Under the pieces are notes generated by a model. The model saw only the letters and a program-made list of their open reading frames with translations, searched no databases and was not told where the DNA came from. Below, piece by piece: positions 2,855 through 58,574 of a stretch of 64,000 bases of DNA. The position numbers were made by a program, and so were the translations under genes. The stretch spans positions 75,778 to 139,777 of the forward strand of contig JACOZV010000001.1 in the NCBI GenBank assembly GCA_016181175.1. The letters run 5' to 3'. The DNA comes from Candidatus Yanofskybacteria bacterium (GTDB lineage: Bacteria > Patescibacteriota > Minisyncoccia > 2-02-FULL-40-12 > IGHO2-01-FULL-4-A). Position 1 is the stretch's first letter, and each line of letters starts with the position of its first letter.

Positions 2855-5074
2855 CTATACTGGCCAATCTTCCACAAGCAGAAGTTTTTTGTTGGAAACC
2901 GGCAGTTTAGACCAGATTTCTTCAGTAACGAAGGGCATAAAAGGGTGTAGAAGCTTGAGCGAATTGATAAGGATATAGGCAAGTGTATTTTTGGTTTCTT
3001 GATCTTCGTGGTCCTTGCTTTCTTCGATGTATTTATCGGCAAATTCATGCCAGATGAATTTGTACAAACTGTCGGCAGCTTCGGCAAAATCGTACTTTTC
3101 AATTTGTTGAGTGACGTAAATAGCGACAGCATCCATCTTTACGGTTATTTCGTTTTTGATATCTTGCGGCGATTTTAATATTTTCCATTCATAATCACTG
3201 CCCAGCTTCATTGTTGTATACCTGGCGATGTTCCAAACCTTATTTGCGAATTTTTTGCCCATAACCATCAAGTTTTCGCCGAATTTTAAGTCCTGCAATC
3301 TGGTTGCTTGTGATGCCAAGCCAAAACGCAAAGCATCTGTGCCGTATTTTTCAATCAACTCAAGCGGATTAATGCCGGTACCCAACGACTTAGACATCCT
3401 TTTACCGTCTTTAGTCAAAATCGTAGCGTGGATATAGACGTCCTTAAACGGCGCTTTACCGGTAAATTCCAAACCTGAAAAAATCATTCTTGCTTGCCAC
3501 AAAAATAAAATGCCGCGATCGGAAGTTATGAAATCCGTCGAATAATATTCATTGAAGTCTTCGGATTTTTTGTCGGGCCAGCCCAGTGTGGCAAACGGCC
3601 AAAGCGCCGAAGAAAACCAGGTGTCCAGAACGTCCTCCGACTGTTCATATTTGGCATCGCAGTATTCACAAAGCGGTTTTTCGGCGGAAATTTTAATTTC
3701 CTCGCATTTGTCTATGTCTTTTTCGTGGCCGGGTCGTGGAATGCATTTGGATTCGTGATGCCAGACGGGTAACTGGTGTCCCCACCAAAGTTGTCTGGAA
3801 ATGTTCCAGTCGCGAATATTTGAAGAATCCAGCCAGTTTTCAAGCGCTACTTGCCATCGGTTTGGGTGCAGGTTTACTTTGTTGCCGCGTATTGCTTCCG
3901 AGGCTCTCTCGGCTAGTTCTTTCATTTTTAAAAACCATTGCTTGCTTGGTAATGGTTCAATGACCGAGTTGCATCTGTCACAGCGCGCTATATTGTGGTC
4001 ATAGTCTTCAATTTTTTCCATTAGGCCGATAGCCTCCAAGTCTTTGACTATTTGTTCACGAGCTTCGGTGGTTTTCATACCTTGGTAGCGAATGCCAGCA
4101 TTTTCGTTCATGCGCCCATGCTTATCAATTATTGTAAGTGACGGTAAATTTTGGCGTTGGGCGATTTCAAAGTCAGTTAAATCGTGCGCCGGTGTAACCT
4201 TTATGATACCAGTGCCGAACCCCATGTCTACTGCCTGATCGGCAACTACTTTTATTGTCATTTTTTTGGTTTTTGCAGGTTCACTGGCCGGCACGCCGTT
4301 GTCTATAGATTCTATTTCTAAATTTTTTCCGACATAATCTTTGTAACGCGCGTCTTTGGGGTGTACGGCCAAAGCGGTGTCGCCAAGCTTGGTTTCCGGT
4401 CTGACGGTCGCTAAAGTAAAAGCCCCATATTTTATAAAGTAAAGTTTTGCTTTTTCGGGTAGATAGTTGACCTCCAGATCAGATATTGACGTTCCGCACC
4501 TGACGCACCAGTTTATTACTCTTTCGCCGCGATAAATCCATCCCTTTTTATGATAGTGGATGAATGCTTCTTGCACCGCTTTTTGGTAATCGGGGTCCAT
4601 GGTGAATCTTAACCTGGACCAGTCAGCCGACACCCCTAACTTTTTAAGCTGTTTCAAAATCGTGTTGCCATATTGATCACGCCATTTCCACATGCGTTCA
4701 AGAAACATCTCTCGGCCCAATTTGTGGCGACTTGTTCCTTCCTTGGCCAGTTGTTTTTCAACCGCATTTTGAGCGGCAATGCCGGCATGATCTGTCCCCG
4801 GTAACCACAAAGTCTTATATCCCTGCATTCTCTTGGTTCTTACTACGATGTCTTGCAATGTGTATTCAAGTGCGTGTCCCATGTGTAATTCGCCGGTAAT
4901 ATTTGGTGGAGCGATACAAGTTACAAAGGGCTTAGTTTCTTCGTGCTTGCCCTCCTTCGCCAAGGCTACGGAGGGTAGCCCTTCCGGGCTAAAAAATCCT
5001 GACTCCAGCCAGAGTTTGTAAGTTCTATCTTCAGTTGACTTAGGGTCGTAAGTTTTTGAAAACTCATCAGACAT
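2855..5074 (-). CDS. valS: Valyl-tRNA synthetase, short form lacking C-terminal coiled coil
   Basis: HMGH-type motif (TGELHMGHALEY) and KMSKS (KMSKSLGTG); class I editing aminoacyl-tRNA synthetase architecture. Confidence 0.9.
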   Translation of the reverse strand: MSDEFSKTYDPKSTEDRTYKLWLESGFFSPEGLPSVALAKEGKHEETKPFVTCIAPPNITGELHMGHALEYTLQDIVVRTKRMQGYKTLWLPGTDHAGIAAQNAVEKQLAKEGTSRHKLGREMFLERMWKWRDQYGNTILKQLKKLGVSADWSRLRFTMDPDYQKAVQEAFIHYHKKGWIYRGERVINWCVRCGTSISDLEVNYLPEKAKLYFIKYGAFTLATVRPETKLGDTALAVHPKDARYKDYVGKNLEIESIDNGVPASEPAKTKKMTIKVVADQAVDMGFGTGIIKVTPAHDLTDFEIAQRQNLPSLTIIDKHGRMNENAGIRYQGMKTTEAREQIVKDLEAIGLMEKIEDYDHNIARCDRCNSVIEPLPSKQWFLKMKELAERASEAIRGNKVNLHPNRWQVALENWLDSSNIRDWNISRQLWWGHQLPVWHHESKCIPRPGHEKDIDKCEEIKISAEKPLCEYCDAKYEQSEDVLDTWFSSALWPFATLGWPDKKSEDFNEYYSTDFITSDRGILFLWQARMIFSGLEFTGKAPFKDVYIHATILTKDGKRMSKSLGTGINPLELIEKYGTDALRFGLASQATRLQDLKFGENLMVMGKKFANKVWNIARYTTMKLGSDYEWKILKSPQDIKNEITVKMDAVAIYVTQQIEKYDFAEAADSLYKFIWHEFADKYIEESKDHEDQETKNTLAYILINSLKLLHPFMPFVTEEIWSKLPVSNKKLLLVEDWPV

Positions 5075-5086: not shown

Positions 5087-6181
5087 TTAACCCAGTTTTA
5101 GGTTAGCGTCCACCTTGATTGATTTTTCGGTTACCTTTTTGTTTTTTTGATAATTTAAAAAACCGGCCAAGGCGATCATGGCCGCGTTGTCAGTGGTGTA
5201 TTCCAGTTCCGGCCGGTAAAATTTAAGACCTGTTTTTTCAGCGGCAGTTTTAAGTTCTTGGCGGAGCAGTTTGTTGGCCGAGACACCGCCAGATAGCATT
5301 ATTGATTTGGTTTTGTACTCGCGTGCCGCATTAACAGTTTTTGTGACAAGCACATCAACGATAGCTTGTTGAGCTTCTTGTGCGACCGCAGTTCTTATTT
5401 TTGACAAGGCATAGGTTTTGGTTAAATCGCGGACGAGATACAAAACAGCGGTTTTAAGTCCGGCAAAAGAGAAATCCAGATTTTTTGTTTTTAACATGGG
5501 CCTGGGTAATTTGATTTTGAGTCGTAACTTTTTATTTAGAACTTTGGCAGCTTCTTTTTCAATGGCCGGCCCGCCTGGGTAACCAAGTCCGAGTATGCGG
5601 GCAATCTTATCAAATGCTTCGCCGGCGGCATCATCCAGAGTTTGGCCGATTACCTTATACTTGCCAATGTCATTTATCAGTATCAATTCAGTATGCCCGC
5701 CGGAGACAATTAGACAGAGGGCGGGAAGTAGTGAGTAGTGAGTAGTGAGTAGTGAGTAGTTTTTTTGACTTTTTAAATTTTGAATTTTGAGTTTTAAGTT
5801 TTGAGATGGAAGCCAGTTGCTAGCAATATGGCCTTCAAGATGGTTGACTCCGATAATCGGTTTTTTATATTTCCAAGCCAATGCTTGAGCAAATGTTGTG
5901 CCAACCAATAAAGAAGAAACTAATCCTGGTCCGCGAGTTACGGCAACCAGATCAACATTTTCCAATTTATAGTTTCCTATTTTCAGAGCGAGTTTGAGTA
6001 CTTTGGGAAGATTTTTGACATGTTCACGGGCGGCTAGCGAAGGAACCACGCCCCCATAGGGAGCGTGGAGTTTAACTTGAGAAGATATGACGTTTGAAAG
6101 AATCTTGATTTTGTTGTTTTTCACCTCAAGCAACGAAGCCGCCGTCTCATCGCAAGATGTTTCAATACCAAGGATCTTCAT
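5087..6181 (-). CDS. tsaD: tRNA N6-adenosine threonylcarbamoyltransferase TsaD (Kae1/Gcp), with an in-frame low-complexity insertion
   Basis: MKILGIETSCDETAASLL…, HLEGH and VSGGHTELI motifs; about 25 extra residues between the two metal-binding motifs. Confidence 0.9.
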   Translation of the reverse strand: MKILGIETSCDETAASLLEVKNNKIKILSNVISSQVKLHAPYGGVVPSLAAREHVKNLPKVLKLALKIGNYKLENVDLVAVTRGPGLVSSLLVGTTFAQALAWKYKKPIIGVNHLEGHIASNWLPSQNLKLKIQNLKSQKNYSLLTTHYSLLPALCLIVSGGHTELILINDIGKYKVIGQTLDDAAGEAFDKIARILGLGYPGGPAIEKEAAKVLNKKLRLKIKLPRPMLKTKNLDFSFAGLKTAVLYLVRDLTKTYALSKIRTAVAQEAQQAIVDVLVTKTVNAAREYKTKSIMLSGGVSANKLLRQELKTAAEKTGLKFYRPELEYTTDNAAMIALAGFLNYQKNKKVTEKSIKVDANLKLG

Positions 6182-6275: not shown

Positions 6276-6350
6276 GGCCCTATCGTCTAATGGTTAGGAC
6301 GGCTTTCTTTCAAGAAGCAAATAGGAGTTCGATTCTCCTTGGGGCTGCCA
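6276..6350 (+). tRNA. tRNA-Glu(TTC) with encoded CCA
   Basis: D-arm TCGTCTAATGGTTAGGAC typical of tRNA-Glu; anticodon loop CTTTCAA; T-loop TTCGATT; ends GCCA. Confidence 0.75.
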
Positions 6351-7036
6351 TGGAATCAAGAAGAGATTATCAAGCAGCACTCGCTCTTAGACTTGAAGGA
6401 AAAACCTACGGAGAAATTAGGAAAAGTTTTCAAATACCAAAATCCACCCTTAGCACATGGTTTTCGAGTTTAAAGATAGATAGTGAGGCTAAAAAAGTTT
6501 TAGAATCTAAGAAAAAAAATGGTTATTACAAACTAGTTGAGTTTAATAAGATAAGGACCCTAAATATAAAGAAGGAAAACGAAAATATTAGAGGGGAGTA
6601 TGAATCTAAGATCGGTAGATTAAATAATCGTGAGTTGATGGTTCTGGGAGCTGCTCTTTACTGGGGAGAGGGCTACAAAAACTTCGGTCTTAAAAATGGC
6701 GGGTATCCATATATGTGTTTGGGTAATTCAGATCCCTCAATGATCAAAGTTTTCGTTATATTTTTGTATAAGTTTTTGAAAATTACCAAGGACAGGATCA
6801 AATGTCAGATAATGATCTATCCTAGCATAAACCCTCAAAAGGCAATTCAATATTGGCAAAATATTACGCAAATTCCAAGTAAAAACTTTCGTACTCAGCT
6901 AGCAGTGAGTCGTGCTAGTCAAGGTAAAAGGCCCAGCAATTTATTACCCTACGGAACACTTCAATTACGGGTTAATAACCGACAGGAGTTTTTCAAAATT
7001 AAAGGATTAATTGATGGTATCACTCAAACTATTTAA
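6351..7036 (+). CDS. HTH-domain plus LAGLIDADG-like endonuclease-like protein (paralog A); its ATG follows the tRNA-Glu CCA directly
   Basis: N-terminal HTH-like LRLEGKTYGEIRKSFQIPKSTLSTWF; LGAALYWGEG resembles the LAGLIDADG motif; paralogous to 8478..9110. Confidence 0.5.
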
Positions 7037-7124
7037 TCTATGCTAATTTTGCTGGGCATTACAAATTAGTCGAGCGATGGTGAGGCAAGAAGTGAAGCCG
7101 ACTCTCCGTGTTGCTAATTTAGTA

Positions 7125-7160
7125 AAATAAACGGCTCATCTGGATGAGCCGTTTATTTTA
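7125..7160. terminator. Bidirectional rho-independent terminator
   Basis: AAATAAACGGCTCATC-TGG-ATGAGCCGTTTATTTT, between convergent genes. Confidence 0.75.
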
Positions 7161-12823: not shown

Positions 12824-15800
12824 GTGTCTTTTATTACTTTGTTTGAGACGCAGGAACAATTAGAAAAATCATTGGAATCAATCGATTATTCGTCGGTTAA
12901 TTTTTTTGTTAAAGACGGAAAAAGATTTATTGAGGCGTCTTTTCTCGCCAAAGAGTTTGGCTACGAACCGGGTCATGTTGCAAGATTGGCTAGACAAAAT
13001 AAGATTGATTCTTTTTACGACCAGCCATCAAGGCGCTGGTACGTTACTAAGGAATCTTTGGCAAAATATCAGGAGCAGGCGCACTTGAATAAAAAACTCG
13101 CCGGTTTAAAAAGCGCCAATTTAGTCAAACCAATTATTCAGCAAACCACAATTGCCCCCCAGGAAAAAGCAATTTCTGTTGAAACAGATTTGGAAGCGGG
13201 TCAGTTGCGGCTTGCCGAAACAGGCCGTACAGTTCTTTCAGAGGAATCTGCTGACATCTCAATTGATAACGATGCAGTTTCTTCACCAGTTCTTTCTGAA
13301 TCAGTTCTTTCTAATTTTCATACTCACAGTCAGTATTCAGCTAGTTCTCGCCTTAAGGCCGCTGTTACGGCAATGTTTGCAACAGCGGCCTTTATATTTT
13401 TGTTAATTTTTGGAATGACAGTTTTGCCTAAGGATTTAAGTTTGGTTAAGGATCTTACAAGCAAACTTTCGGCTGTCCCGACATTTTTTCTGGAGAATCA
13501 TGGGACTGTTTCCAGACCTGCGTTTTTGCCGGTAAAACCAACCGGTCAGTATCTTAATCTTGCCGTCGTTTTTTACCAGGATTTTATTGAAGAACCAATT
13601 GAAAAATTTTTTGATTTTTATGAAAACGGACCGGTTCTGTCGCCGTTGGTAGCTCCCAAAGATTTTTACCTGACAGTGGTTCCGCAACCCAAGCCGAAAA
13701 TTAATTTTTCATTTTTATACAATTTTAAAAATTTATTTTTTGCTCCAGTCGAAAAACTCGCTGATTCCAGTGTTGGTTTTACCGAACAAATTTTAATCAT
13801 TTGGGGCAAAATGAGCCAAATAGAGATACTGCCGGCAGAGACAAAATCAGTACCTCTTTTTTCACAAGTAAAAATAACTAGTCCGAATTTTGCTTCTATC
13901 GCAGATTCTATTGCAGATCAAAGTTTTATTAAAAATTTTAAGCAAGTTTTAAATAACGAAAAGTTGGCGCTGCCGTCGCTTAATCTCATTTCAACTCAAG
14001 GTTTGGCAGGTGGTTTGAACAAAGGTTTTGCGGACTTGTCCCAAGCCGCAGACACTTTTTCGTTCTTGCCGAAATTGCCTGACAGAGTAACTGGTTTTTT
14101 CTCGGATCTTAAAGAAATTATCCTGTCTCCGCTCAAAGATATTGCCAACTACGGTGACAATTTAACAGAGCAGTCACCAACCTTTCCTGATCAAATAAGT
14201 CAGCCAGAATCATCGCCAGCAGGAGTCAAGCCGCCGACTACTTTTTCTCCGGCAAAGTCATCCGGTCCAGTATATGTTGCCACCCCGATTGATCAGAGTT
14301 TCATCAAAAAATTGGTAAAGCAATTTTTTGATGAAGAAAAATCTGCGCTTACCCCTCTAAATCTTATTTCAGTCCAAGGTTCCGTTGATGACTTAAATCA
14401 AAAACTTGCTGATCTGGTTTCGCGTGTCAATCAAATTCCGCCTCCACTCCAATACATAGGTGGTGGCGGTGGTGGTAGTACAACCACGGTTGGTGGGGGC
14501 GACGCCCAAGTTGCCGGTTCTAAATTAACGGTTGGCGTCACAGTGGTTAATAGCGGTTCAATTGGTACGACATCCGGTAATTTTTCTATTGATTCCGGCG
14601 GTGGCACAACGACTATTTCAGACAACCTAACCGTAACGGGCTTACTCTCTGCTTCCACCGCATCGTCACACTCTTTTATTGGTGATTTATCAATTAGTGA
14701 CGATATTGAGTTAACCGGTGATGCTTCCGCTTCCGCTTTTTTCGGTGCCGGGCTTAACGCCATGACCGGCACAACTGGTTGTTCTGGTGCTTCTGCTGAC
14801 AAACTTCTATACAATGCCACCACTGGCAAGTTTTCCTGCGGTTCTGATCAAAATAGTGGCGGTGGTGGCGGCGCTCCATTAGGCATTGAGATAGTAAATT
14901 CCGGAGCTGCCTTTGGCACCCATTACGGTTCAATATCTTTTGACGCCAGCCATTTTACAGTATCTCTTGCCGACCTAAGCGCCTCTTCTTCATATGTCCG
15001 TCTTGACTGGGGAGCCGGCGGTCCCGCTTCCTTATCACAGGATGAGACTGTAGCCGGCAAATGGCTCTTCAACTCTGCCTCCACCCAATTCAATAACCTA
15101 CTAGAATTAAACGGCACCGCTTCAGTATCCGTAGCCAACACCAATTTCAACATCAATCTAAATGGAACAGGTGACTTTGTTATCCAAGATGCCGGTTCAA
15201 CAGTATTCACAGTTACTGATACAGATACCATAACCCTAAACAACGGATCTGCTGACCTAGTTAGTATTACTGGCAATGCATCAATCTCCTCCAATCTAGA
15301 ACTCACCGGTACCGGCTTCGCCTCCGCCTCCTACTTCTATGCCCAACCAGGGACAGCTGCTTTACCTGCTTTCGCTTTCGGTAATGATACAGATACAGGA
15401 ATATTCAGGTCAGCCGCAAATCAATTGGGTCTTGCCACCAATGGTGTAGAAAGATTGACCATTGATCCTTCTGGTTATGTTGGTATTGGTACAACCAGTC
15501 CAACTACAAAATTTGAAGTCCAAGGTACTGCTTCAGCATCTAATTTCTTAACCGTTGGTGCGATTCAAGTTGCCGGCGGAGTCTCAAAGACATTTTCCAG
15601 ATTCGGACTGGATGACACCGGCCACAATTTAATAGCCGCCTCTGATTTGCTTGTAAGCGGAATGTTGGAAATTAATAGCAACACCTTCTTTGATGCCAGT
15701 GCAAGTGTTGCAGTTAATTTTGATGTAGGAAGCGGAGCAAACGTAATTAAGATTAGGCCTAACGCTGGCAACAATTCTGGTTTTCGCTTGGAAGGTAATG

Positions 15801-16293: not shown

Positions 16294-19200
16294 GTGTCCA
16301 AACATCTAAAAATCATAATATTCTCACTTTTCTTGGTCGCTGGCTTTACTATGAAGTCAGATTTTGCTTCTGCTGCATCCCGTTATTGGGTAGGCGGGGG
16401 ATCATCAACAAACTGGAATGCTACCGGCCCCACTAATTGGTCAGCCACATCAGGAGGAACTAATAATGACACAGTTCCCAATTCTACTGATGATGTTTTT
16501 TTCAATTCCAGTTCCGGTACCGGTAATTCCGTAATTTCTGCATCTATTACCATCAACTCTTTTGATGCTACTGGATATACTGGAACCCTGACCCACAATG
16601 CCAGTGTTACCCTGACGATTTCTGGGAGCGGGGTAGTTTTCAAACTAGCATCGGGGATGACATATACAAAAGGAGGTAATACGAGTTCTGCCCTTTCCTT
16701 TACCGGCACATCGGGTACTACGATGATAACAACAGCAGGGAAGACTATCGGTAAGATAACTTTTAATGGCGTGGGAGGATCATGGCAATTACAGGATGCC
16801 TTAAATGCTGCAGGTACCGCTTCGCAAATTATTTTAACTAGTGGTAACTTTGATTCCAATAATTTTAATGTGACAATGGGATCTTTTGTTTCCAGTAATT
16901 CCAATACTCGTACGCTGACAATGGGATCTAGTACTTGGAAGCTTCAAGATGGCGGAACTATCGTTTGGAATCTCGCAACCGTCACGGGTCTTAGTTTGAA
17001 TGCGGGTACCTCTACGATTGTGATTTCTAGTACGAACGGTAGCGGAAAAACATTCGCTGGTGGGGGACAAACATATTATAATGTTGTTTTTTCGGGGGAC
17101 AATATCAACATTTCGGATTCCAATACTTTTAATAATTTTGCTATTAATAATGCTGGCCTGACAAATGGGTTAGCCTTGGGGGTAGGGAAGACACAGACTA
17201 TTATGGGATCATTTACGACTAATGGATCTGCGGGAAGTTTAGCGATTCTTAAAACTACTACATCGGGTAGTACTGCAACTTTGTCAAAAGCGTCGGGAAC
17301 AGTTTGCGTTGACTACATGAGTATTAAAGACTCAACCGTTAGCGGTGGCGCCTCTTGGTATGCCGGAGCCAACTCCACGAATGTGTCAGGCAATACAGGT
17401 TGGACATTCTCTGCTTGCCCCGGTGGAGACACCACCCCTCCCACAGTTTCAATATCTTCCCCAACAGCAGGATTAACAGTTTCAGGCAATACCACGGTTT
17501 CAGCCACCGCCTCTGATAATGTAGGAGTATCTGGCGTCCAATTCAAATTAGATGGAGTAAATCTTGGAGTAGAAGATATTGACTCCCCATATTCAATAAC
17601 CTGGGATACAACCGCTACTACCGATGGCTCTCATGATCTTACCGCTACCGCTCGTGATGCATCAGGCAATCAAACTACTTCATCTGCCGTGACGGTTACA
17701 GTAAGCAATCCCACCCCTACCCCCACCCCCACCCCCACCCCCACCCCTACCCCCACCCCTACACCTTTGCCGGCAACTGGTATTCCCGTTATTTTCTTTA
17801 CCGATCTTGAGTCGGGTCCCAACACAGGCGGAGAGAACAACAATGGCGCCTTTGTCACAATTTACGGCAAAAACCTTTCCGGCAGTACTGTTACAGTGGG
17901 AGGAGGATCAGCAATTATTAAACTAACCTCAACCCCATATCTCTGGTATGAAAAAATGGCAATTCAATTAGGAGCGAGTACTAATTCTGGCAATATCATA
18001 GTTACTAATGCATATGGCTCATCCAATAACTTACCATTTACTGTGAGAGCGGGTAATGTTTATTGCGTTTCAATGACTGGTGCAGACTCCAATAATGGAA
18101 AATTTACTACCGAAACACCGCCATCAGCTGGCGTACAAGGATGTTGGCTAAATGTATACAAGGCAAAAAATACAATTGCCGCAGGTGACATCGCCTATAT
18201 CCTGGATGGTGCGAACCAGACAACCCCTGAACCAGGAACGGGAGTAGCACTTCAAATTTCTAACGGTGGAAATTTGGGGAATCCGAAGGCTTTGATTGTC
18301 TACCCAGGTGGCACTTCTGTTTTAGGTGCCATAGGTAGCGGCGACTGGGTGGGTTCTGTGGGCGGTATTAAGGTACTGGGGAGTGCCAGCAATGCAGACT
18401 ATATTACCATCGCCGGGTTTACATTCAAAACTTTTAGTAGTGCGCTCTCAATTTCTGGTAACACATATCCCAGCGCACAACACTGGAGATTTATCGGCAA
18501 TTATCTGACCTGTCCCGGGGGTGATGGGCAGTCCGCTTGTGCCTCCCCGGGTTCCATGGAATACCTGGAGTTTTTAGGAAACGAGATTACGGATGCTGGC
18601 TGCAAAGAAGGGGGAACGCAGAATTGTAAACTCATTAGCCCCGCAAACACAATCACGACAGTTGGCACAACACTGACGCTGAGTGGTTTTACTTCTGGCG
18701 TGAATCTCGGTGCTAGAATCTGCGTAACGACCTGCGCATCAGGGCAAGTTCGTCATATCGTAGCGGCTGGACCAAATAACCTAAACTGGATACTCGATAG
18801 CGCATTCACGTCTGATGTTACGGATTCGACATTTCAGTTTCGTTACGGATTAACATCGAAGCAGTACCACTCTGTTTATGTGGATAACAGTGATCACATC
18901 GAAATTGGGTGGAGCTACATCCACAACAATAACTCCTGTCGTGGGATTTTGACCAACTCGACCGGTACAACCGGTGGGCACCAACAGCACGATCTCTCTT
19001 ACCACGACAACATCATTCATCATCAAACCTGTGCCGGAATCGACCTCAACACCGTGGACCCCAATACTGGGCCAGTCGAGGTCTACAACAATTTGATCTA
19101 CCATGTCGGGACAGGGCCAACTCCACATGATGGCATCGGTAATCTTGCGTGCATTTATTCTGGTGATAATAATCGAAGCTCTCCAGGGGCTGGAACAATT

Positions 19201-22445: not shown

Positions 22446-25400
22446 ATGTTAAATCTAATTTTCCAAAAACTGCTCAAAAAGAAAACGATTGACCGCTTGA
22501 TTCTAGCGGTCAAAAAGTTTATAGCCGGCACGACGATTTTAATGTCGGTGTTTTACGGCACTCTTTATTATGCCCTAGTCACATTAGCTAGCGAAAACGA
22601 ACAAGTTCCCAAACCACTTGTCAGTCAGACAGGAGATCCGACCAGTAATCCCGGCAGATATTATTTAGAGTCTCTTAAAAACAGAGCTGATGAAATTGTC
22701 GGTCTTACCTTTACAAGCCACGATAATTACCAAGAATTTGTTTTCGCTGGCAATAAAATTATTGAGCCAGCATCAATTACTATAAACGACAAACCATACG
22801 TGCCATTCAGATTGCTTTTGTCTTCAAGCAGTAAGGACTACGAAGTTGAACTCAAATCCAAGAAAGGGACGCAAATAATTTCTTTAGCCGGAGATCGTTT
22901 CGAGTATTCTATTTTTGAAAAACAACAAAAAGGTTTTTTGAAATTGGCTTCCGTTAATCCGAAATTTCAAATAAAAAATTGGGGGACCGTGGAAGAACCT
23001 CAGTCAACACCCAGCTGGCAAGATATTATTTTTACAAATCCAGTATCAACCAGTTGGTCAGTATATGACAATTACATAGAAATCAAACAAAATAGCAATT
23101 TTATTACAGGAGAAAAAAATTACAACGCTTGGTTAAAGGTAAAACTTGGTTTTGATAGTTCAGATTATATTAACTCCTGGAATTTCGGCGTATCAGGCCA
23201 GGAAAATATTACACCCGCAGATGAATTTAGAATTAGACTGCAGACTGTGCTTGCGGGTAAAATCAAACATCAGACAAATGATAGCGGTAACTTGGAAGTT
23301 GGTATAGAGAATCCAAAAAGTAATACAGCTGAGGATGTCATAGATTTGGACAATTTATTTCTAAATCCAACGGCTTCGGTATCTCAAACGCCGAGTATAT
23401 TACCAGAAGCTACGGTCGGTTCGATACCAGTGGAACCAGAAGTAACTCAATTACCAAGCGCCACCACAGAACCTTCGCTGATTTCGACACCCGAGCCGTC
23501 TCTTACTCCGGCTGCATCTGTGTCAGAATCGGGCAATGAAGCAAGCCCTTTGTCTGAAGAACAAGAGACGATCCCGACTCCGCATTTTGAGATTACTTCA
23601 ACCCCATCCAGCGAGAGTCCAGCCCTAGAATCAATACCGGAGCAGACGCCGGAGCCGATTACTACGTCCCTGCCGGAAACTACTGGCAATCAAGACGAAA
23701 CCACGCCTGAACCAAGCCCCACCTCGCTATTAAATAAATTCTTTGGAATCAATATTGTAAATGCAGAAGAAGTGACAGAGCAACCAGTAGAAGCAAGCAT
23801 AGACCCGGTCATTATACCAGAAAATACAACTAATCCAGTCTCCGAAATACAAGAGCCTACTTTGTCGGAAACTGATACCGATGAAACTGCGAATTCTATT
23901 ATAGCGGAACCGATACTCCAACCACTGATTGAGGGTGCTTCAAGTATTATTAATCAAGTTACCGATAGTTTAACTAATTTTGCAGAAAGTCCGAGTATAT
24001 CATTGCCGACTTTGGAACCGGAGACAGTTTCTAACAGCGAGCCGGTAACTATTTTTGAAGAACCTATTGTTGCAAGCTCAGATCTTTCGGAGCCCCCCCA
24101 AAAGCCGCAATCAATTCCAGCCCAAATTGCAAACGTATTAAATAGTTTGAATCTTTTTTCTGTTACTCAAACCACCATTTCTGAATTAAATTTTGGTTTA
24201 GGAGACGAGGGTGGGAGCAATCTCCAGATAGATGAGAATAATAACATCCTAACAACAGAGGTAAGTTTGAATTCCAGCAACAACGGGGTTTCAGTTATAC
24301 TTTCAGATATCGGTGTGGCCGTTTATAACACCGGTATCTGGATAGCTTCGGGCGATGGCAGTAAATCAACAGATTTCAAACTTCACTTCAATTCCAGCTA
24401 CGGCGGCGCGATTGATGAGTTGTATCTTGGCACCGACTTTCATACCAACAAAGTGGCGACTCCGCAGGCAGGATCGGGGGGGCTGACATTGATTGAGCAG
24501 GATCATTTTTCCCAAGCGGAAACCAGAAGTTCAACCCTGGAAGTGATTGAGCAATCCAAGGTCAGGATAGTCATAGACAACACCTTTAGACTTGGCCCGG
24601 AGGCTGGCATAGCCGAAAAGTGGTCAATTTATGCCACCGGCCGGATAATAAAACAAACGATTTTTGATAAATATAAAACTGGCGAGGAAAGGTGGTATCT
24701 CAATGCTGCCAAAACCGGTTTTGATTTATCAGCGGGTTATAACTACAATCAGCTGATTTTAAACACCAAACTGGAACCCAATTCCAAAGACCTGATGTTG
24801 GTTTGGCAAAATCCAAGTTTGTTGACCTCTTCTTCTTTTGAGGCAGGCGAAACGGATAGTTCATATACAACCGTTGCGAAATTAAACCGTCAGCCGTGGA
24901 CCTATACTGAATACCAAATGATTGATTTGATGCAAGAGGATTTGAGCATGATTGATAAAACCTCAATAGATGAAAGAGCGAATGATTATCGCAATCCCGA
25001 CAATCCAGAATTCACGGTCGGCAGTTTCAGAAAGGTCAATCAGCAATATTTTTCTTATGAAATGGATTCGGCCGGCAGTAAAAATCATGTAGTATTCAAA
25101 ATGGACGGTTCACAAATCGCAAGATTCCATCCGGTATTTGAAATTCACGAATGGAACAACCCAGACCTTAGCGCAATCAGATCATACATGAACCAGAAAA
25201 ATATGGTTGAGAATCGTGACTATATTGTTGATTTCAGGAATAGTGATCCCGGCACTGGTATTTTGATATTCCACTTTCTTGGCACAGTACGCACCAATTC
25301 AGAATTAAGCGCTGACGGGTTTGTAACTTTTGATATTGATCCGGAGGTTACTCCGGGTTCGGGGATACTGGCTTATGGAGGAGGGAATATGCAGACAAGT

Positions 25401-29254: not shown

Positions 29255-29308
29255 TAATTTTTAATTTTTAATTTTTTAATTTTATAAATAAACTCTAAAT
29301 CTAAAACA
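29254..29308. repeat. Left arm of the AT-rich palindromic hairpin repeat (family A), interrupted by the 4HB gene
   Basis: AATTTTTAATTTTTAATTTTTTAATTTTATAAATAA matches the 5' arm of copies at 37306, 55441 (inverted) and 62394. Confidence 0.7.
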
Positions 29309-29644
29309 ATGAAATATGATCTTGAAGAAAGGTGTGCGAAATTTGGTGAAAATATAATTTTATTTTTGAGTGGTTTAAAAAAAGATGAAATTAATCGGCC
29401 GCTTGTTGGCCAACTGATCAGATCGGCTACAAGTATCGGTGCCAATTACATGGAAGCAAATCAGGCTGCATCCAAAAAAGATTTTATTAATAAAACAAGA
29501 AATAGCCAAAAAGAAGCTAATGAGAGCAAGCATTGGCTAAGAATGATTGCTGTTGCTTCGCCGAATCACAAAGAAAGTTGTAGAAAACATTGGCAAGAGG
29601 CCCATGAGTTGACGTTAATTTTTGCCAAAATTAGCAAGAGTTAG
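29309..29644 (+). CDS. Four-helix-bundle protein of the 23S rRNA intervening-sequence protein family (TIGR02436-like; Avd-like fold)
   Basis: 111 aa; DLEERCAKFGENIILF…VGQLIRSATSIGANYMEANQAASKKDFINK…ESKHWLRM matches the S23p/4HB family consensus. Confidence 0.8.
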   Translation: MKYDLEERCAKFGENIILFLSGLKKDEINRPLVGQLIRSATSIGANYMEANQAASKKDFINKTRNSQKEANESKHWLRMIAVASPNHKESCRKHWQEAHELTLIFAKISKS

Positions 29645-29654
29645 TTTTTGAACC

Positions 29655-29707
29655 CTTTTAAACATTAAGATTTATTTAAAAATTATAAAATTACAAAATT
29701 AAAAATT
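29655..29707. repeat. Right arm of the AT-rich palindromic hairpin repeat (family A)
   Basis: AAACATTAAGATTTATTTAAAAATTATAAAATTACAAAATTAAAAATT matches the 3' half of the 37306..37410 copy. Confidence 0.7.
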
Positions 29708-30754
29708 ATGGTCAACGCAATTTATATTTTTGCTAGTTTAATCGTTGGCGCCCTATTTGTTCTAGTCGTTTTTAAGTCGAGTAAGCATTCAAAGGATGAT
29801 CAAGGTTTACAGACGATCAATCAGCGTTTAGACACTCTTAGTGTTTCAATGAATCAAGCTTTACGGGACACGGTGAAAATGGTGGCCGATCAGCTCAAAG
29901 ATAGCCGCGAGTCGGTGGAGAGGTCATCGCTGGCAGTCAATCAACAGGTGCAGGGGTTTACTACGGGTCTGACGCAGTTGAGTGAAAATCTTAAAAGCGT
30001 GCACGAGAGCGTGAAAAACGTTTCCTCTTTTCAAGATATTTTCAAAGCGCCCAAACTTCGCGGTATTTGGGGTGAAGCATCGCTTGAAGCATCGCTGGCG
30101 CAGTATTTTCCCAAGGATCGCTATGAAATTCAGCATTACTTCAAATCGGGTGAAGCCGTGGATGCTGTTTTGAGACTGCCTAACGATTTAATTTTGCCGA
30201 TTGACTCCAAATTCAACTGGGAAAATTTTGAGAAGATGGTAAATTCCGATAATGATATCGCGCGCGAACAATACAAAAAAACATTTTTGTCTGATGTGAA
30301 GAAAAAAATTGACGAGATCGCATCCAAGTATCTTTTGCCGTCAGAGGGCACGACTGATTTTGCCTTGATGTATGTGCCGGCAGAAACGGTTTATTATGAG
30401 GTTGTAAATAATATCAAAGATGTTGATTTGCCGGCTTATGCTTTGAGCAAAAAAGTTTTTTTGGTTTCACCTAATACGTTTATGTTGTCGGTTTCGGCGA
30501 TCGGGCACTGGCTCAAAGATGTCCAGCTCAATAAGCAGACCAAAGATATAATGAAGCGGTTGGAGCGCATAGCTCTTGATGGTCGCAAGTTGGGTGATGA
30601 CTTCAAACGGCTGGGAAAACACTTATCTGACGCTCGCGGATCTTATGATGATTCGGAAAAGCGGCTTACACTCATGGTAGATCGCGTGCAGAATGTGGTT
30701 GAGCTTGAGGATGGCAAGGGGGATGGCAAAAATGAGGGGAATCTGTTAAATTAA
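29708..30754 (+). CDS. rmuC: DNA recombination protein RmuC
   Basis: N-terminal TM, coiled coil, conserved RmuC C-terminal block (…FALMYVPAETVYYEV…VSPNTFM…). Confidence 0.8.
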   Translation: MVNAIYIFASLIVGALFVLVVFKSSKHSKDDQGLQTINQRLDTLSVSMNQALRDTVKMVADQLKDSRESVERSSLAVNQQVQGFTTGLTQLSENLKSVHESVKNVSSFQDIFKAPKLRGIWGEASLEASLAQYFPKDRYEIQHYFKSGEAVDAVLRLPNDLILPIDSKFNWENFEKMVNSDNDIAREQYKKTFLSDVKKKIDEIASKYLLPSEGTTDFALMYVPAETVYYEVVNNIKDVDLPAYALSKKVFLVSPNTFMLSVSAIGHWLKDVQLNKQTKDIMKRLERIALDGRKLGDDFKRLGKHLSDARGSYDDSEKRLTLMVDRVQNVVELEDGKGDGKNEGNLLN

Positions 30755-34612: not shown

Positions 34613-35151
34613 GGCCATAATCAAATATATGAATAAATTCCACAATAATTTCATAACAAAAAGCGGCTGAAGCCAAGTTCTTAATTTGCGTTTACAAGCA
34701 GCCGCGTAAATCGCGGATTTTTTATCAAAATTGAATATATTAGAGCCATTATTGGCTGTCGTCGGGCATCTCCTTACGGAGGTGCCCGACGGAAGCTAAC
34801 ACTAAACCGATTGAATAGATTGCAATTTAAAAAATAAATAGTTAGCGGGTATCCCGGTTAGAGCTTGCGATTGCCACAAGTGGCAATCCACCTCTAACGG
34901 GATTAAAAAATTGCATTTCTGCATTTAGAAATGAGTTCCAAAATGCAGAATAAGTAGATTGAATTCGATCTATCAATAGAGATCGAGGATTTAATCTTGT
35001 AAGGAATTATTAAGGGCGTATGGAGGATGCCTTGACACCAAAAGGCGACGAAGGACGTGGCGTGACGACGATATGCTTCGGGGAGCCGTCTAGCGGGCTT
35101 TGATCCGGAACATCTCAGTAGCCAGAGGAAAATAAAACAAACCCCGCACCT

Positions 35152-35273
35152 TTTGAGCACAAGATTTTATTTGGCATCCGCATTGTGATGCGTGGCTGAC
35201 GGATATTAATTATTTGTTGTTTGCGCACTACATTTCGGAATCTAATTGACACTAGTGCTTAAAAGGTGCGGGG
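35152..35273 (+). repeat. Hairpin insertion in the 23S 5' domain, flanked by 13-bp inverted repeat CCCCGCACCTTTT / AAAAGGTGCGGGG (family B)
   Basis: Inserted between GAGGAAAATAAAACAAA and AACATTTCCTAAGTAGCGGCGAGCGAA; same IR termini as 57160..57227 and 42283..42458. Confidence 0.65.
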
Positions 35274-35652
35274 AACATTTCCTAAGTAGCGGCGAGCGAA
35301 AGGGAAACAGTCTAAACTCTTGTTTATTAAGTTTACTTAGTGAGTGGGAGTGTTGTAGGAAGGATTTTTTTCTAAACACTGGACATCTGCATATACTCTT
35401 GTGCGGATATCCAGGAAATTAGGATTGAGTTACAAAGTTAGATGTTAGCTGAACGGTCCTGGAAAGGCCGACCAAAGAGGGTGATAGTCCCGTAAACCAA
35501 AACCTCTAATCTCAATCAACCGAGCACATAACTTTTAGGAGTTATGAGCTCGGTTGGAAAATCCTCTCCTGAGTACCCATGGAGCAGACTATCCGTGGCG
35601 AAGCCGGGCCTACTACGGTCCAAGACTAAATACTTTTGGTGATCGATAGTGA

Positions 35653-35686
<34 letters not shown>

Positions 35687-35799
35687 GGTTAGGGGAGTGA
35701 AATAGAACTGAAACCATATGCCTACAAAGAGCCGAAGCCCTTCCCGTCGCAAGACGGTCAGGGTGACGGTGTGCCTATTGAAGAATGATCCAACGAGTT

Positions 35800-36128
35800 T
35801 TTACAAGTGGTTTATCCAGCTTCACTTTTGGTTTATGATGACTTTATGTGGATAGTTTATATTATTCAGAACAATCTAACTGAAAAAATATATATTGGCT
35901 GTACAAATGATCTCAAGAAACGAGTCGAAAAGCATAACAGCCAAACAAATAAAGGTTATACAAGACGACTTATCGGTCAATGGATTTTGATATACGCGGA
36001 AGCTTATAGAAGCAAAGAAGATGCTTTTCGACGGGAGTCAAAACTCAAAGACCACGGTAGTTCTAAACATGAATTGAAGAAGAGAATCAGCAATTCATTG
36101 TTAAAACCAAAAGTGAGGCTGGATTAAG
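35800..36128 (+). mobile_element. Stem-bounded intervening sequence in the 23S helix-25 region carrying a GIY-YIG ORF
   Basis: 19-bp stem CCAGCTTCACTTTTGGTTT (35816-35834) / AAACCAAAAGTGAGGCTGG (36104-36122) enclosing the ORF; inserted between …GAATGATCCAACGAG and GGATAAGCCCGTATAGGG…GGAAACCGAGTG. Confidence 0.65.
35846..36127 (+). CDS. GIY-YIG nuclease-family protein (YhbQ/UPF0213-like) encoded inside the 23S IVS
   Basis: WIVYIIQNNLTEKIYIGCTNDLKKRVEKHN…YTRR…WILIYAEAYRSKEDAFRRESKLK is a GIY-YIG motif set; an alternative GTG start lies at 35807. Confidence 0.7.
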   Translation: MWIVYIIQNNLTEKIYIGCTNDLKKRVEKHNSQTNKGYTRRLIGQWILIYAEAYRSKEDAFRRESKLKDHGSSKHELKKRISNSLLKPKVRLD

Positions 36129-36582
36129 GATAAGCCCGTATAGGGTGCATCCGTAGGGAAACCGAGTGTTAAAAGCGCGACTTAATCGCTTGTAAAAGAC
36201 CCGAAGCCAGGTGAGCTACCCATGGCCAGGATGAAGTTTGTCGAAAGACAAATGGAGGTCCGAACTAGTTGATAGCGCAATATCATTGGATGAGCTGTGG
36301 GTCGGAGTGAAAAGCTTATCGAACCTGGTAATAGCTGGTTCTCCCCGAAATGCCTTTAGGGGCAGCGCCGGTGAGTAGTCGCGGGGGTAGAGCTCTGAAT
36401 GGTTTGCCGTGCCAGCAATGGTAGGCTTACCAAACAAACTACGAATACCGCGGTGTAATCGCCGGTAGTGAGACTGTGAGGGCAAAGCTTCATAGTCGCG
36501 ACGGGATTAGCCGTTTGACCACCGCTTAAGGTCCCTAAATCTATGCTAAGTGTTAAAGGAAGTCATTTTCCTTAGACAGGTA

Positions 36583-36624
<42 letters not shown>

Positions 36625-37305
36625 CAGCTTACTGCTCGAATTCTAATTTCGGTTAGACGAGGAAAGTGGCGCCGAAGATTCAACGGGGCTAAGCATAGTA
36701 CCGAATGCGTGGACCGTCCCGATTTATCGGGATGAGTGGTAGGGGAGCACTTCAAGCCGCTGCGAAGGTGTGTCGTGAGGCATGCTGGAGCGCTTGGAGG
36801 AGAGAATGTTGGAATGAGTAACCACAAGCGAGGTGAGAACCCTCGCCGCCGTAAGCCTAAGGTTTCCTCCGCAATGTCAATCACCGGAGGGTTAGGCGAC
36901 GCTAAGGATAACCGTGCCTACGGGCATGGGAAGCCGATGCTAAGCCGGTTAATATTCCGGCCCTTCCATATGTATTGATGGAGCGACGGAGGATATAAGC
37001 TGGAGCAGATTATTGGATTTCTGTTTTTGGATTCCAGGATTGTCGTTTGGAAAATCCGGCGACTGACTTTAATGTCAAAATACGAATTTGAAGAAATCAC
37101 GGGTAACCGTGGGATTCCAGTGAAGAGCCTTCCAAGAAAAACTTCTAAAATTATGCATATGGGAAACGTACTTAAAACCGACACAGGTGGGCTAGTGTAA
37201 GTGCACTAAGGCGAACGGGTGATTATTGGCTAAGGAACTCGGCAAAAAAGTGGCCGTACCTTCGGTATAAGGCCTACCTGACCGTGCCTCACTGCGTTCG
37301 GCACG

Positions 37306-37410
37306 AATTTTTAAATTTTTAATTTTATAATTTTAATAAATAATTTCTAATGTTTAAAAATTAAAAACATTAAGATTTATTTAAAAATTAAAAATTGGAA
37401 ATTAAAAATT
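37306..37410. repeat. AT-rich palindromic hairpin repeat (family A), full ORF-less copy inserted in a variable 23S helix near the helix-63 region
   Basis: AATTTTTAAATTTTTAATTTTATAATTTTAATAAATAATTTCTAATGTTTAAAAATTAAAAACATTAAGATTTATTTAAAAATTAAAAATTGGAAATTAAAAATT; arms are mutual reverse complements; central mini-hairpin TAATGTTT/AAACATTA; flanked by 23S exon sequence. Confidence 0.75.
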
Positions 37411-37632
37411 CTAACAAGCCGAGCATAGCGAGGCGCGGTTGGGTCGCAGCTAACGAACCCCTGGCGACTGTTTATCTAAAACACAACTCTGTGCTAAGCC
37501 GAAAGGCGCTGTATACAGGGTGACGCTTGTCCAGTGCTGGAACGTTAACGGTGGAGGTGGTATGCAGCAATGTGTATTGCCAACGCCCGAAGCGCCAGTG
37601 AACGACGGCGATAACTATAATCGTCCAAAGGT

Positions 37633-38949
37633 TTTGAGAATTTGTCAGATGGCAAGTTCTCAAAAGGACTTGGCCGATTGTAGTGAATTTATATTGATAA
37701 ACAAAAGTAGCTGCCTATCGCGTGACGAAAGTTTTACGCGATGTCTTAAAATATATTCGATCATATGCTGGAAAGTCTGAGTATCCACAACTACTATGGT
37801 ATGATGTTACCTTTGGTGATAAAATATATCTATGCCAAGTAAAAATGTTAGTGGTGCAGACGATCAGCAGGAAAGTCTGAAAATGATGGGTTGGATAACA
37901 GGTTTTGTTGATGGGGAAGGATGTTTTACTGTCAGTATATTCAAGAATTACAAAGCTCAACGCAAGCTCGGATGGCAAGTATTCCCTGAGTTTGTAGTTT
38001 CCCAAGGAGAGAAGAGCTTGAGCGTTCTCGAACTGATCAAGAACTACTTCAACTGTGGTTATATAATAAAAAATAAAAGGAACGATAACCACCACGAAGA
38101 TATGTTCAAATACTGTGTGAGATCTTTGTCGGATCTAGAAACCAAAATTGTGCCATTCTTTACCCAAAACAAACTCCTAACCGCAAAGCGAAGAGATTTT
38201 ATAATCTTTAAGGAAATCCTAAAAATGATGGGTCGCAAGGACCACCTTAACCTTAAAGGACTTAGAAAAATTGCCTCTCTAGCTTTGCAGATGAATCGTA
38301 AAAAAAGACCCAAGTTTTCAGAAATCCTCAGAGACTAAACGTCGAACCCGCTCAAATTTTTGGACTTAAATAAAAAAAACCTCAACTGAGGTTTCGATGA
38401 ATTTGCTATTAATAATCAATTATAGGAGCTTGTTCGTGCCGCTTATCTATACCTTTAAATCTACTGTCGGTACGGATTTTCCTAATGGTATTTCGTGGTA
38501 ATTCACATTGAATCAGCATAATATCATTGTTTCTGAGTTTAACATTAAATTCTACTATGCCATATTCTATAAAATATATAATAAGAGATGCTACCCAGCG
38601 TACATGAACACGAAGAGTTAATTTTTCCATGAATTTTCCACCTTTCTTTTGTGATTTAAAATGAACTTTGAAATGCAACACCAATAAACTAAATGTTTAC
38701 TGGTTTGCCCTACTCGCCCTGATTTGTAAAAGGATGAGGAAAATAAGGATAACCCTTTACTTTACTCGTCTTTTAGCTGATTTTTATTGTAAAATAAGGA
38801 CAAATCAGATGTTGCACTTCGGGGGTAAATGCGAGCGAAGAAACCCAGTGGTAAGTATAAATCAATTAAAATTTAGTGTCAATAGTCCAAAAATTTGAGC
38901 GGGAAGATATAGTCCGAACTGCATGGCGACATGCAGAGTAACATACTTA
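37633..38949 (+). mobile_element. Intron in 23S at the E. coli ~1917 site (CCAAAGGT | AGCGAAATTCC) carrying a LAGLIDADG homing-endonuclease gene
   Basis: Exon junction reconstitutes AAGGTAGCGAAATTCC; 1317-nt insert; internal 19-bp long-range pairing CCCGCTCAAATTTTTGGAC / GTCCAAAAATTTGAGCGGG; 3' motif GAACTGCATGGCGACATGCAGAG shared with the insert at 39499. Confidence 0.7.
37832..38338 (+). CDS. LAGLIDADG homing endonuclease (single-motif, I-CreI-like), intron-encoded
   Basis: 168 aa; MMGWITGFVDGEGCF LAGLIDADG motif. Confidence 0.8.
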   Translation: MPSKNVSGADDQQESLKMMGWITGFVDGEGCFTVSIFKNYKAQRKLGWQVFPEFVVSQGEKSLSVLELIKNYFNCGYIIKNKRNDNHHEDMFKYCVRSLSDLETKIVPFFTQNKLLTAKRRDFIIFKEILKMMGRKDHLNLKGLRKIASLALQMNRKKRPKFSEILRD

Positions 38950-39169
38950 AGCGAAATTCCTTGTGGGGTAAGTTCCCACGCGCATGAATAGCGGAACGAC
39001 TGGGGGACTGTCTCAGCCAATAGCCCGGTGAAAATGCAATGTCAGTAAACGAGTTTTTATGCGTAGTGTAGTGGCGAGCCTTTGAAGTCATGTTCTTGGA
39101 TGTGATGGAGGCGACAATGAAACAGCCATCTTAAAGACTTGTAATTCTAACTGGTGTAACCCTAGGAGG

Positions 39170-39441: not shown

Positions 39442-39498
39442 CTTCCTAGGGTTACATCAAGACAGTGCCTGGTGGGTAGTTTAACTGGGGCTGTTGCC

Positions 39499-40769: not shown

Positions 40770-40840
40770 GAAACATGCGTGAGACAGGTTGGTCCTTATC
40801 TGGTGCGGGCGTTGAAGTTTGAGGGGGGTTGTCCCTAGTA

Positions 40841-58572: not shown

Positions 58573-58574
58573 AA

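Follow-up and report, generated by a model that had tools for sequence, protein, structure and literature searches.

How can a tandem repeat whose unit length is not a multiple of three persist inside the coding sequence of a universal tRNA-modification enzyme? This question is raised by a 64,000-nucleotide (nt) stretch of contig JACOZV010000001.1 from a Candidatus Yanofskybacteria bacterium (referred to below as the window, which is the whole stretch of DNA that was analysed), where the tsaD gene carries two adjacent heptanucleotide arrays between the codons for its HLEGH and VSGGHT motifs. The results presented here indicate that these arrays are probably translated, slippage-prone heptanucleotide microsatellites, located in a permissive and probably disordered surface loop of the TsaD protein. 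This reading is carried by the observations that such arrays occur lineage-wide in Patescibacteria, are concentrated in tsaD and are specific for the 7-nt period; that whole-unit insertions and deletions break tsaD at the strain level in relatives; and that the reading frames of the arrays have shifted during evolution.

The tsaD gene and its array-bearing loop

The open reading frame (ORF) that contains the arrays matches the Pfam family PF00814 (TsaD/Kae1/Qri7) with E=3.6e-88 and 296 bits (cut-off 24.8), and solved TsaD chains in the PDB are phmmer matches to its product at 1e-79. The AlphaFold2 model of the protein, with a mean predicted local distance difference test (pLDDT) score of 86.5, superposes in Foldseek on the TsaD proteins of E. 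coli, Salmonella and Aquifex with template modelling (TM) scores of 0.81-0.92 (0.85-0.92 for E. coli TsaD), and the matches to 4ydu and 3zet show the two-lobe ASKHA fold of the TsaD family. The HxxxH metal motif, the SGGHT motif and the conserved C-terminal Asp are all present, and in an alignment of 43 sequences the positions H114, H118, S160, G162, H163 and D331, and also V159, are invariant. On the basis of these sequence and model comparisons, the ORF of 364 amino acids (aa) is identified as TsaD, the predicted N6-threonylcarbamoyladenosine (t6A) transferase, in agreement with the first-pass annotation of this DNA. The features of the gene considered here are as follows.

5087-6181, minus strand: tsaD coding sequence, 364 aa (ORF list, Pfam, PDB sequence matches, AlphaFold2, Foldseek)
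5690-5707, minus strand: VSGGHT codons, V159-T164 (invariant positions as given above)
5714-5827, minus strand: variable loop, codons 119-156 (loop extraction, AlphaFold2 confidence, gap against T. maritima TsaD)
5727-5760, in the minus-strand gene: perfect heptanucleotide array (AGTAGTG)x4.9 (Tandem Repeats Finder, TRF, 100% matches, score 68)
5760-5766, minus strand: A7 run (T7 on the plus strand) joining both arrays, sense reading CAA AAA AAC (sequence)
5763-5805, minus strand: degenerate A-rich heptanucleotide array of about 6 units (TRF period 7 and 21, lag-7 scan)
5813-5821, minus strand: S121-N122-W123 codons (AGC AAC TGG), which form the hairpin 5' arm in relatives (hairpin search, alignment)
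5828-5842, minus strand: codons of the HLEGH metal-binding motif, H114-H118 (both His invariant as given above)

The variable loop connects the helix beginning at HLEGH to the strand that runs into VSGGHT. Its length is 38 aa in the window protein and 17 aa in the relatives with the shortest loops, which corresponds to an insertion of 21 residues, and the alignment with T. maritima TsaD likewise opens a 21-residue gap exactly at the array-encoded stretch. The earlier claim of an in-frame insertion, formed by the arrays and placed between the HLEGH and VSGGHT motifs, is upheld by this gap and by the continuous ORF, and the alignment with TsaD orthologues, which had been proposed as a check, confirms the insertion and reveals orthologue loops of differing lengths with a 7-residue periodicity. 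However, the size of the insertion, put at about 25 residues, had been overestimated. In the AlphaFold2 model the pLDDT is below 50 for residues 128-143 and above 90 for the core, and a helix is predicted at residues 147-151; judged from this model, the array-encoded insertion is probably a disordered surface loop.

The array coordinates given at first (5728-5760 and 5770-5806) differ by only a few bases from those found by TRF (5727-5760 and 5771-5804). The first array reads (AGTAGTG)x4.9 on the plus strand and (TACTCAC)n on the sense strand; its unit TACTCAC encodes NYSLLTTHYSLL, the resulting peptide is N-YSLLTTH-YSLL, and stop codons are absent from all three sense frames. Its TRF score is the second highest in the window, the highest (86) being that of a hexanucleotide repeat, (CCCACC)x8.3, at 17710-17759. 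The second array is described by TRF as (TTTTGAA)x4.9 with 85% matches at 5771-5804 or, alternatively, as 2.0 copies of a 21-nt period at 5763-5804. Its sense-strand units are, in order, CTCAAAA, CTTAAAA, CTCAAAA, TTCAAAA, TTTAAAA and AGTCAAA; the array encodes QNLKLKIQNLKSQK, and a TAA is concealed in another of its frames. The peptide encoded by both arrays and the A7 run is ...PSQNLKLKIQNLKSQKNYSLLTTHYSLLPA..., situated between H114-LEG-H118 and V159-SGGHT. In a sliding lag-7 scan, the tsaD segment was the only strong 7-nt-periodic segment of the window, the lag-7 autocorrelation of the loop DNA being 0.64 against about 0.3 at other lags, and the 14-mer TACTCACTACTCAC, which comprises two units, is matched 4 times in the window where 0.17 matches would be expected, and a count of 4 is reached in none of 100 shuffles. 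No further copy of either array was found in the window with 2-3 mismatches allowed, and no promoter-like or terminator-like site was found at the arrays.

Arrays of the same kind in tsaD of relatives

The possibility that the insertion is peculiar to this genome, or results from misassembly, is not borne out, as this loop varies greatly and shows a 7-nt periodicity in tsaD throughout the Patescibacteria. Among the 120 best homologues of the window protein (55-72% identical, all with an intact gene, and including MAGs, i.e. metagenome-assembled genomes, named Candidatus Yanofskybacteria), the loop has a length of 17-69 residues. When the 120 loops are pooled, the residue identity is 0.170 at lag 7 and 0.05-0.11 at other lags, and the lag-7 value outside the loop is 0.060; the loop peptides resemble translated 7-nt repeats (e.g. 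NSKFKIQNSK, ISNFQFLISK, FSILNFQFSKK, SDFGFRASDL and NYKLPTTNYKL). The loop DNA is 7-nt periodic in every close relative with DNA that was examined; in the loci L085, L086, L087 and L090 its lag-7 autocorrelation is 0.48-0.56 against about 0.3 at other lags, and a run of A5-A9 is found in or beside the arrays of L085, L087, L090, L093 and L097. Further, relatives have two additional array-bearing loops in tsaD, so that a gene may contain up to three of them. The second loop precedes LPRPM and carries arrays such as (CAAACTA)n, (CAACTTT)n and (CAATTTT)n, which replace ancestral residues rather than simply adding to them, and the third follows a helix ending in LRDL and carries, for example, (AAAACTA)x4.

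The concentration of the arrays in tsaD was measured by counting strong arrays, defined as those with at least 82% lag-7 matches over 28 nt. In 28 loci of the Candidate Phyla Radiation (CPR) type 30 kb of tsaD yielded 16 strong arrays and 212 kb of flanking DNA yielded 4, i.e. 0.53 per kb against 0.019 per kb, or an approximately 28-fold difference, and the same test at lags 5, 6, 8 and 9 gave zero arrays in tsaD of these loci. The control consisted of 65 loci without a CPR label (Firmicutes, Proteobacteria, Chloroflexi and others), which were obtained from a genome scan with generic TsaD peptide patterns; only 2 tsaD arrays were found in them (in one Saganbacteria MAG and one unclassified MAG), and no strong lag-7 array was present in 499 kb of their flanks. 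A metagenome scan with the window protein alone yielded 4 loci. Searches with the loop peptide, (YSLLTTH)x6 and (NSKFKIQ)x6 retrieved nothing but short, spurious ORFs that lie over microsatellites in unrelated organisms.

Three of the 4 flank arrays in the CPR-type loci are in frame inside genes other than tsaD, viz. L005 2624-2669 (KSEIRNPKSE), L060 6774-6820 (ISNFKFQISN) and L075 627-665 (LRLTTYNLQL), and by their translations the host genes look like those for RecG, TatD and NadE, respectively. Because in-frame arrays occur in these RecG-, TatD- and NadE-like genes of other Patescibacteria, the heptanucleotide-array phenomenon is not strictly limited to tsaD.

Whole-unit slippage and its consequences

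If units are gained or lost by slippage, then the consequence for the gene will depend on their number. In simulations with the window gene, the gain or loss of one or two units in either array truncates the product at 133-166 residues, which is before VSGGHT and the whole C-terminal lobe, and the loss of one unit from the second array leads to an immediate stop; the loss of three units, in contrast, leaves an in-frame protein of 357 aa. The first-pass annotation had predicted that copy-number slips would shift the frame, and natural alleles of this kind, with losses of 7 nt and 14 nt, were found in near-identical strains of relatives.

These alleles came from strain-level comparisons within clusters formed at 90% protein identity, of which three contain a tsaD gene that is split into two ORFs on one contig. 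In one cluster the intact gene of L093 (354 aa) has (AAGTTCA)x4 and L091 has three copies, an exact 7-nt deletion, the remainder of the alignment (1065 columns) showing 15 substitutions, and the L091 gene is split into ORFs of 141 and 213 aa with the junction in the loop. A third contig of this cluster, L092, breaks off within the array, of which it has 4 copies or more, and differs from L091 by 1 nt in the 3158 nt downstream; therefore 3 and at least 4 copies exist in essentially the same strain. In another cluster L094 lacks two of the (AAAACTA) units of L095, a loss of 14 nt which splits the gene, with 9 substitutions over the rest of the gene (1077 columns). However, the split gene of L096 was rejected as a case of slippage, as it results from a GGA-to-TGA nonsense substitution. 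Apart from this change L096 (431-1666), the allele of a Yanofskybacteria relative, differs from L097 (1501-2736) by one other substitution in 1236 nt, and the intact, identical gene is present on three other contigs. This nonsense allele points either to relaxed selection or to the capture of deleterious variants in assemblies.

Reading frames and composition of the arrays

The closest orthologue for which DNA is available is that of L085 (protein P0003), which is 71% identical to the window tsaD in nucleotide sequence. Identical residues share the same codon in only 48% of cases, and yet both genes contain an identical 37-nt string of the form A7(CTACTCA)n, AAAAAAACTACTCACTACTCACTACTCACTACTCACT, the next longest string in common being 17 nt. 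This string is read in different frames by the two genes, giving KNYSLLTTHYSL in one and KKTTHYSLLTTHS in the other, and because of this the preservation of the array does not depend on its reading frame. Cycles of frameshift and compensation between neighbouring arrays would leave re-framed identical DNA of this kind, as judged from the sequences.

Because 7 and 3 share no factor, an array of at least three units is read in all three frames, and therefore only units that are stop-free in every rotation can sit in an ORF. Of the heptamers with a single C that otherwise consist of A and T, 217/434 are stop-free in all frames, compared with 49/434 of those with a single G. On the sense strand of the arrays C outnumbers G by 130:42, G being less frequent than any other base. 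TAA does occur in (AATTTTT)n and (AAAAATT)n, the 7-nt arrays which this genome has in non-coding DNA. We infer that avoidance of stop codons shapes the units, favouring C over G on the sense strand and units of the A_mT_nC or CTAC type.

A hairpin at the first loop of relatives

In about half of the close relatives the array of the first loop is preceded by a hairpin. In L083, L085-L087, L090, L093, L095 and L101 an inverted repeat of 9-15 bp opens the loop, in which the codons for (x)S-N-W pair with those for P-[IV]-x across a loop of 4-6 nt, and the pairing is perfect apart from a single mismatch in L101. In an alignment of 10 sequences, 5 of the 13 pairs have changed on both sides (17 cells), a value reached in 0/500 shuffles, and slid controls of the test score far lower; G.U pairs account for 2 of the 130 cells. 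The pairing has left an imprint on the protein sequences, as P[IV] comes after SNW in 48 proteins and K[IV] after SNF in 6, and in 49/55 the position that follows is occupied by G, A, R or T, the complements of the Ser codons. Hairpins at the same position are present in one Spechtbacteria and one Moraniibacteriota MAG, and in L086 and L090 a second long hairpin is formed by an A-rich array and a complementary T-rich array (z = -9.3 and -4.9). In the window gene the 3' arm is missing (TCTCAAAAC), and no RNA structure is predicted for its loop (fold z = 0.0, compared with -2.3 to -9.3 in relatives).

In one pair of proteins that are at least 90% identical (P0072 and P0279), the loops differ by a swapped hairpin module (KPIRG vs PPIAE) and by 14 extra residues. 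The corresponding DNA is AGC...GCT for P0279 (L101 2001-3113) and TCG...CGA for the related L095, which also has KPIRG, and the P0279/L101 module resembles that of the more distant L090. On their sequences, this suggests recombinational exchange of loop cassettes between relatives.

The near-pure Watson-Crick stems of the hairpin fit a mutational correction of quasi-palindromes at least as well as they fit selection on RNA. This correction reportedly proceeds by template switching, as described by Ripley and by Lovett, and it could explain how perfect Watson-Crick arms are maintained in relatives while the constrained SNW codons drift. However, this process is a mutational mechanism rather than an element, and it leaves the 7-nt arrays themselves unexplained.

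Origin and maintenance of the arrays

According to the reading that we consider probable, replication slippage would make the arrays grow and shrink and would keep them homogeneous, and units with a stop codon in any sense frame would be eliminated, so that only those which are stop-free in all frames survive. A net gain or loss of three units (21 nt, 7 aa), or compensation in the neighbouring array, would keep the enzyme intact and alter only the loop, whereas changes of one or two units would shift the frame and cut the product before the VSGGHT strand and the C-terminal domain. The window copy belongs to a lineage-wide pattern and has lost the 3' arm of the hairpin. Certain observations weigh against this reading. 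The arrays persist at the same loops of tsaD across very divergent classes of Patescibacteria, which pure neutrality explains poorly, and the 37-nt array is unchanged between the window and L085 despite the low codon identity of the two genes. The loops are mostly identical among the full-length members of the 90% clusters, so that slippage does not occur very often and the arrays lack the hypermutability of the classic long contingency tracts. The 16 tsaD arrays should not be counted as independent events, since they belong to one gene family and may share ancestry. Lastly, the instability of the two window arrays is deduced from relatives, as the window protein (P0001) forms a single-member cluster seen on one contig and a look-up of its exact sequence in the contig index returned no gene. 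The persistence of the arrays across distant classes and the conservation of the 37-nt string may be due to selection, acting on switchability, on a nucleic-acid feature or on the peptide, or to a self-perpetuating mutational hot spot.

These alternatives differ in how well they account for the results. An assembly or sequencing artefact is hardly credible: although only one MAG contig represents the window organism, a read would be longer than the arrays (34-43 nt), the ORF is uninterrupted, the same A7(CTACTCA)n string is present in the closest orthologue, which comes from an independent study, and analogous arrays occur at the same site in many independent assemblies. If the arrays instead are kept by selection as a contingency locus, in which reversible slips of one or two units toggle tsaD and t6A synthesis in a fraction of the cells as a form of bet-hedging by organisms that have few regulators, then a non-triplet unit inside an ORF, the hallmark of slipped-strand phase variation, is what should be seen, and the gene-breaking unit-number alleles at strain level in two relatives, the retention of arrays at the same loops across distant lineages and the conservation of the 37-nt array at the DNA level all agree with it. 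Further, t6A genes are dispensable in several bacteria (PMC12632869), and therefore off alleles of tsaD need not be lethal. However, the arrays have only 3-6 units, compared with 13-38 in the classic phase-variable heptamer tracts (PMC2651432), the loops are identical in most near-identical full-length proteins, and the plain nonsense allele of L096 shows that broken tsaD genes also arise without slippage. We therefore regard an adaptive switch of this kind as possible but doubtful. The broader proposal that tsaD of Patescibacteria is a conserved contingency gene, with stop-free arrays in up to three loops and a self-correcting hairpin at the first of them, such that t6A can be switched or the gene re-framed, appears rather unlikely.

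Selection could also act on the nucleic acid, with the hairpin and arrays serving as an RNA or DNA site for processing, pausing or protein binding and the peptide being a by-product. The covariation of the relatives' hairpin, its imprint on the protein, the two long hairpins of L086 and L090 and the frame-independent identity of the 37-nt DNA speak for such an element, as does the use of 7-nt arrays, in the same genome, to build an rRNA intervening sequence and palindromes between genes. It is nevertheless unlikely, as the window copy has neither a hairpin nor a predicted structure, no promoter- or terminator-like site occurs at the arrays, the unit sequences vary so widely between lineages that there is no conserved binding motif, and the scarcity of G.U cells is explained equally well by template-switching correction. 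A further set of observations, viz. an in-frame insertion in a surface loop, the palindromic architecture in relatives, the swapped module with 14 residues of P0072 and P0279 (L090-like in P0279, which suggests cassette exchange) and the dispersed AT-rich palindromes with 7-nt arrays in the window, could be interpreted as the decay of a mobile palindromic element inserted in frame, similar to those of Rickettsia. Such an origin is quite improbable in view of the absence of other copies of either array from the window, the location of the insertions at the same three sites of one gene instead of scattered positions, the non-palindromic window insert, and the replacement of ancestral residues by the second-loop arrays of relatives. 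It is also improbable that the peptides of 7-residue periodicity represent an adaptation at the protein level, viz. an extra arm which contacts tRNA or a partner protein. In T. maritima TsaD helix alpha7 contacts the D-stem of tRNA (PMC13276492), and the third-loop arrays of relatives come right after this helix; YSLLTTH also has a heptad-like hydrophobic spacing, and a helix is predicted at 147-151. However, the pLDDT of the loop is low, the peptides share no common sequence across lineages, two orthologues read the same DNA in different frames, and some relatives have only the minimal 17-aa loop.

Mechanisms based on frameshifting by the ribosome were also considered and rejected. For a t6A-sensing frameshift at tandem ANN codons, ANN codons make up 41% in the loops vs 31%, but tandem ANN codons are no more frequent in the loops (10.5%) than in the rest of the gene (11.2%). 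A programmed ribosomal frameshift site was rejected on the grounds that the ORF is continuous, no structure is predicted and tandem ANN codons are not enriched.

Relationship to known repeat systems

To our knowledge, non-triplet intragenic repeats, which are the classic bacterial device for random on/off switching, have so far been tied to the surface and restriction-modification genes of pathogens. The tsaD arrays resemble such simple sequence repeat (SSR) contingency loci in having a non-triplet unit inside an ORF, the gain or loss of which shifts the frame, and in the whole-unit differences between alleles of near-identical strains of relatives. They differ in that the host is a housekeeping tRNA-modification gene, in that the arrays are translated in the on state and occur in the same loops across a whole superphylum, and in tract length, which usually exceeds 8-10 units (for units of 4-7 nt) and here is 4.9 and about 6 units in the window and 3-6 in relatives. 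By analogy, the arrays would work mechanistically like an SSR contingency locus with unusually short tracts. An intragenic heptanucleotide, (AATTTTG)14, with frameshift is known from hmw1A of H. influenzae (PMC2651432), and the tsaD unit TTTTGAA is a rotation of that unit.

Heptameric SSRs are over-represented in bacteria, and they have been described as intergenic and as under-represented in coding regions; those known include the tandemly repeated heptanucleotides of cyanobacteria, GGGAATC of Xanthomonas and GGGGA(C/T)T of Nostoc (PMC4692102). The tsaD arrays share with them the 7-nt unit, the preference for arrays of about four units and the ability of inverted array pairs to form stem-loops, but whereas the short tandemly repeated repetitive (STRR) and GGGAATC-type sequences are intergenic and G-rich, the tsaD arrays are coding, A/T/C-rich and stop-free in all frames.

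Rickettsia palindromic elements, which Ogata et al. in 2000 reportedly described as selfish palindromic DNA inserted in frame in protein-coding genes, are comparable in providing extra translated sequence in tolerant surface loops of conserved proteins, and the relatives' tsaD loops are likewise palindromic. However, these elements are of 100-150 bp, whereas the tsaD arrays are tandem and 7-nt periodic, are found in one gene at three fixed sites, and have no dispersed copies within the window.

Full-text searches of the literature found no paper on repeats or inserts in TsaD of Patescibacteria and nothing on heptanucleotide repeats together with the Candidate Phyla Radiation, and a 2022 review of t6A enzymes does not mention CPR/Patescibacteria. 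What is distinctive here is the universal housekeeping host gene, the fixed loops across the largest uncultivated bacterial radiation, and the naturally broken alleles that arise by whole-unit slips. If the arrays are merely tolerated, they provide a clean natural system for the birth, stop-free upkeep and compensation of all-frame coding microsatellites. If they are selected, they would give stochastic control of tRNA modification to organisms almost without transcriptional regulators; and if tsaD were truly a contingency gene, slipped-strand phase variation would be on record for the first time in a universal tRNA-modification enzyme, the growth state and the fidelity of translation would be switchable, and ultra-small bacteria would have a regulator-free route to dormancy or heterogeneity. 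In practical terms, the arrays will produce "split" or "pseudogene" calls of tsaD in MAG annotation and in completeness estimates.

Neighbouring genes and other repeats in the window

The valS gene (2855-5074) starts at 5074, and because the stop codon of tsaD lies only 12 nt upstream of this start, the two genes probably form one operon; the same gene order recurs in relatives. Directly upstream of tsaD, on the opposite strand, there is a tRNA gene (6276-6347), which is overlapped and then followed by an ORF of 248 aa (6290-7036) without a Pfam match, whose GEGYK-type motif recalls homing endonucleases. In the P0056 lineage, on three contigs (L098-L100, 1-1419), tsaD is preceded, at a distance of 82 nt, by the end of a gene for a large serine recombinase (domains Resolvase, Recombinase and Zn_ribbon_recom).

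A family of AT-rich palindromes is present at 37306-37410, 62391-62480, 55440-55541 and 29255-29709, the arms of which consist of (AATTTTT/AATTTTA)n and (AAAAATT)n around a common centre. Two of the copies are intergenic and one lies within the 23S rRNA match, where it is likely an intervening sequence. The arms of the fourth flank an ORF of 111 aa (29309-29644) that matches PF05635, the 23S rRNA intervening-sequence protein family, at 7.7e-14. In comparison with 23S rRNA intervening sequences associated with PF05635, the likeness is that the same genome builds palindromes whose arms are 7-nt arrays; they differ from the tsaD arrays in being non-coding, in having TAA in one frame and in lacking any sequence match to them. 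The large-subunit (LSU) rRNA match at 35000-37750 spans the whole model, and it is followed by a group I intron (39472-39753) and 5S rRNA (42316-42433), which suggests that large insertions interrupt the 23S gene in the region 35000-42433.

Perfect inverted repeats inside long ORFs were also noted at 14300-14335, 1995-2019, 56074-56103, 56390-56413, 22489-22513 and 3040-3062. The most striking of these, at 14300-14335, has a 15-bp stem, TTCATCAAAAAATTG-gtaaag-CAATTTTTTGATGAA, in an ORF of 1152 aa without a Pfam match, and the others are in the genes for HSP20, SSB and ribosomal protein S6, in an ORF of 1820 aa and in valS. Such repeats and the hairpin in the relatives' tsaD may be one and the same phenomenon. 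Between genes, long perfect hairpins (stems of 15-24 bp) are located at 58573-58617, 58952-59002, 7123-7160, 55187-55224 and 1-34; some have A/T-rich flanks and are probably terminators, the 24-bp stem at 58952-59002 being unusually long.

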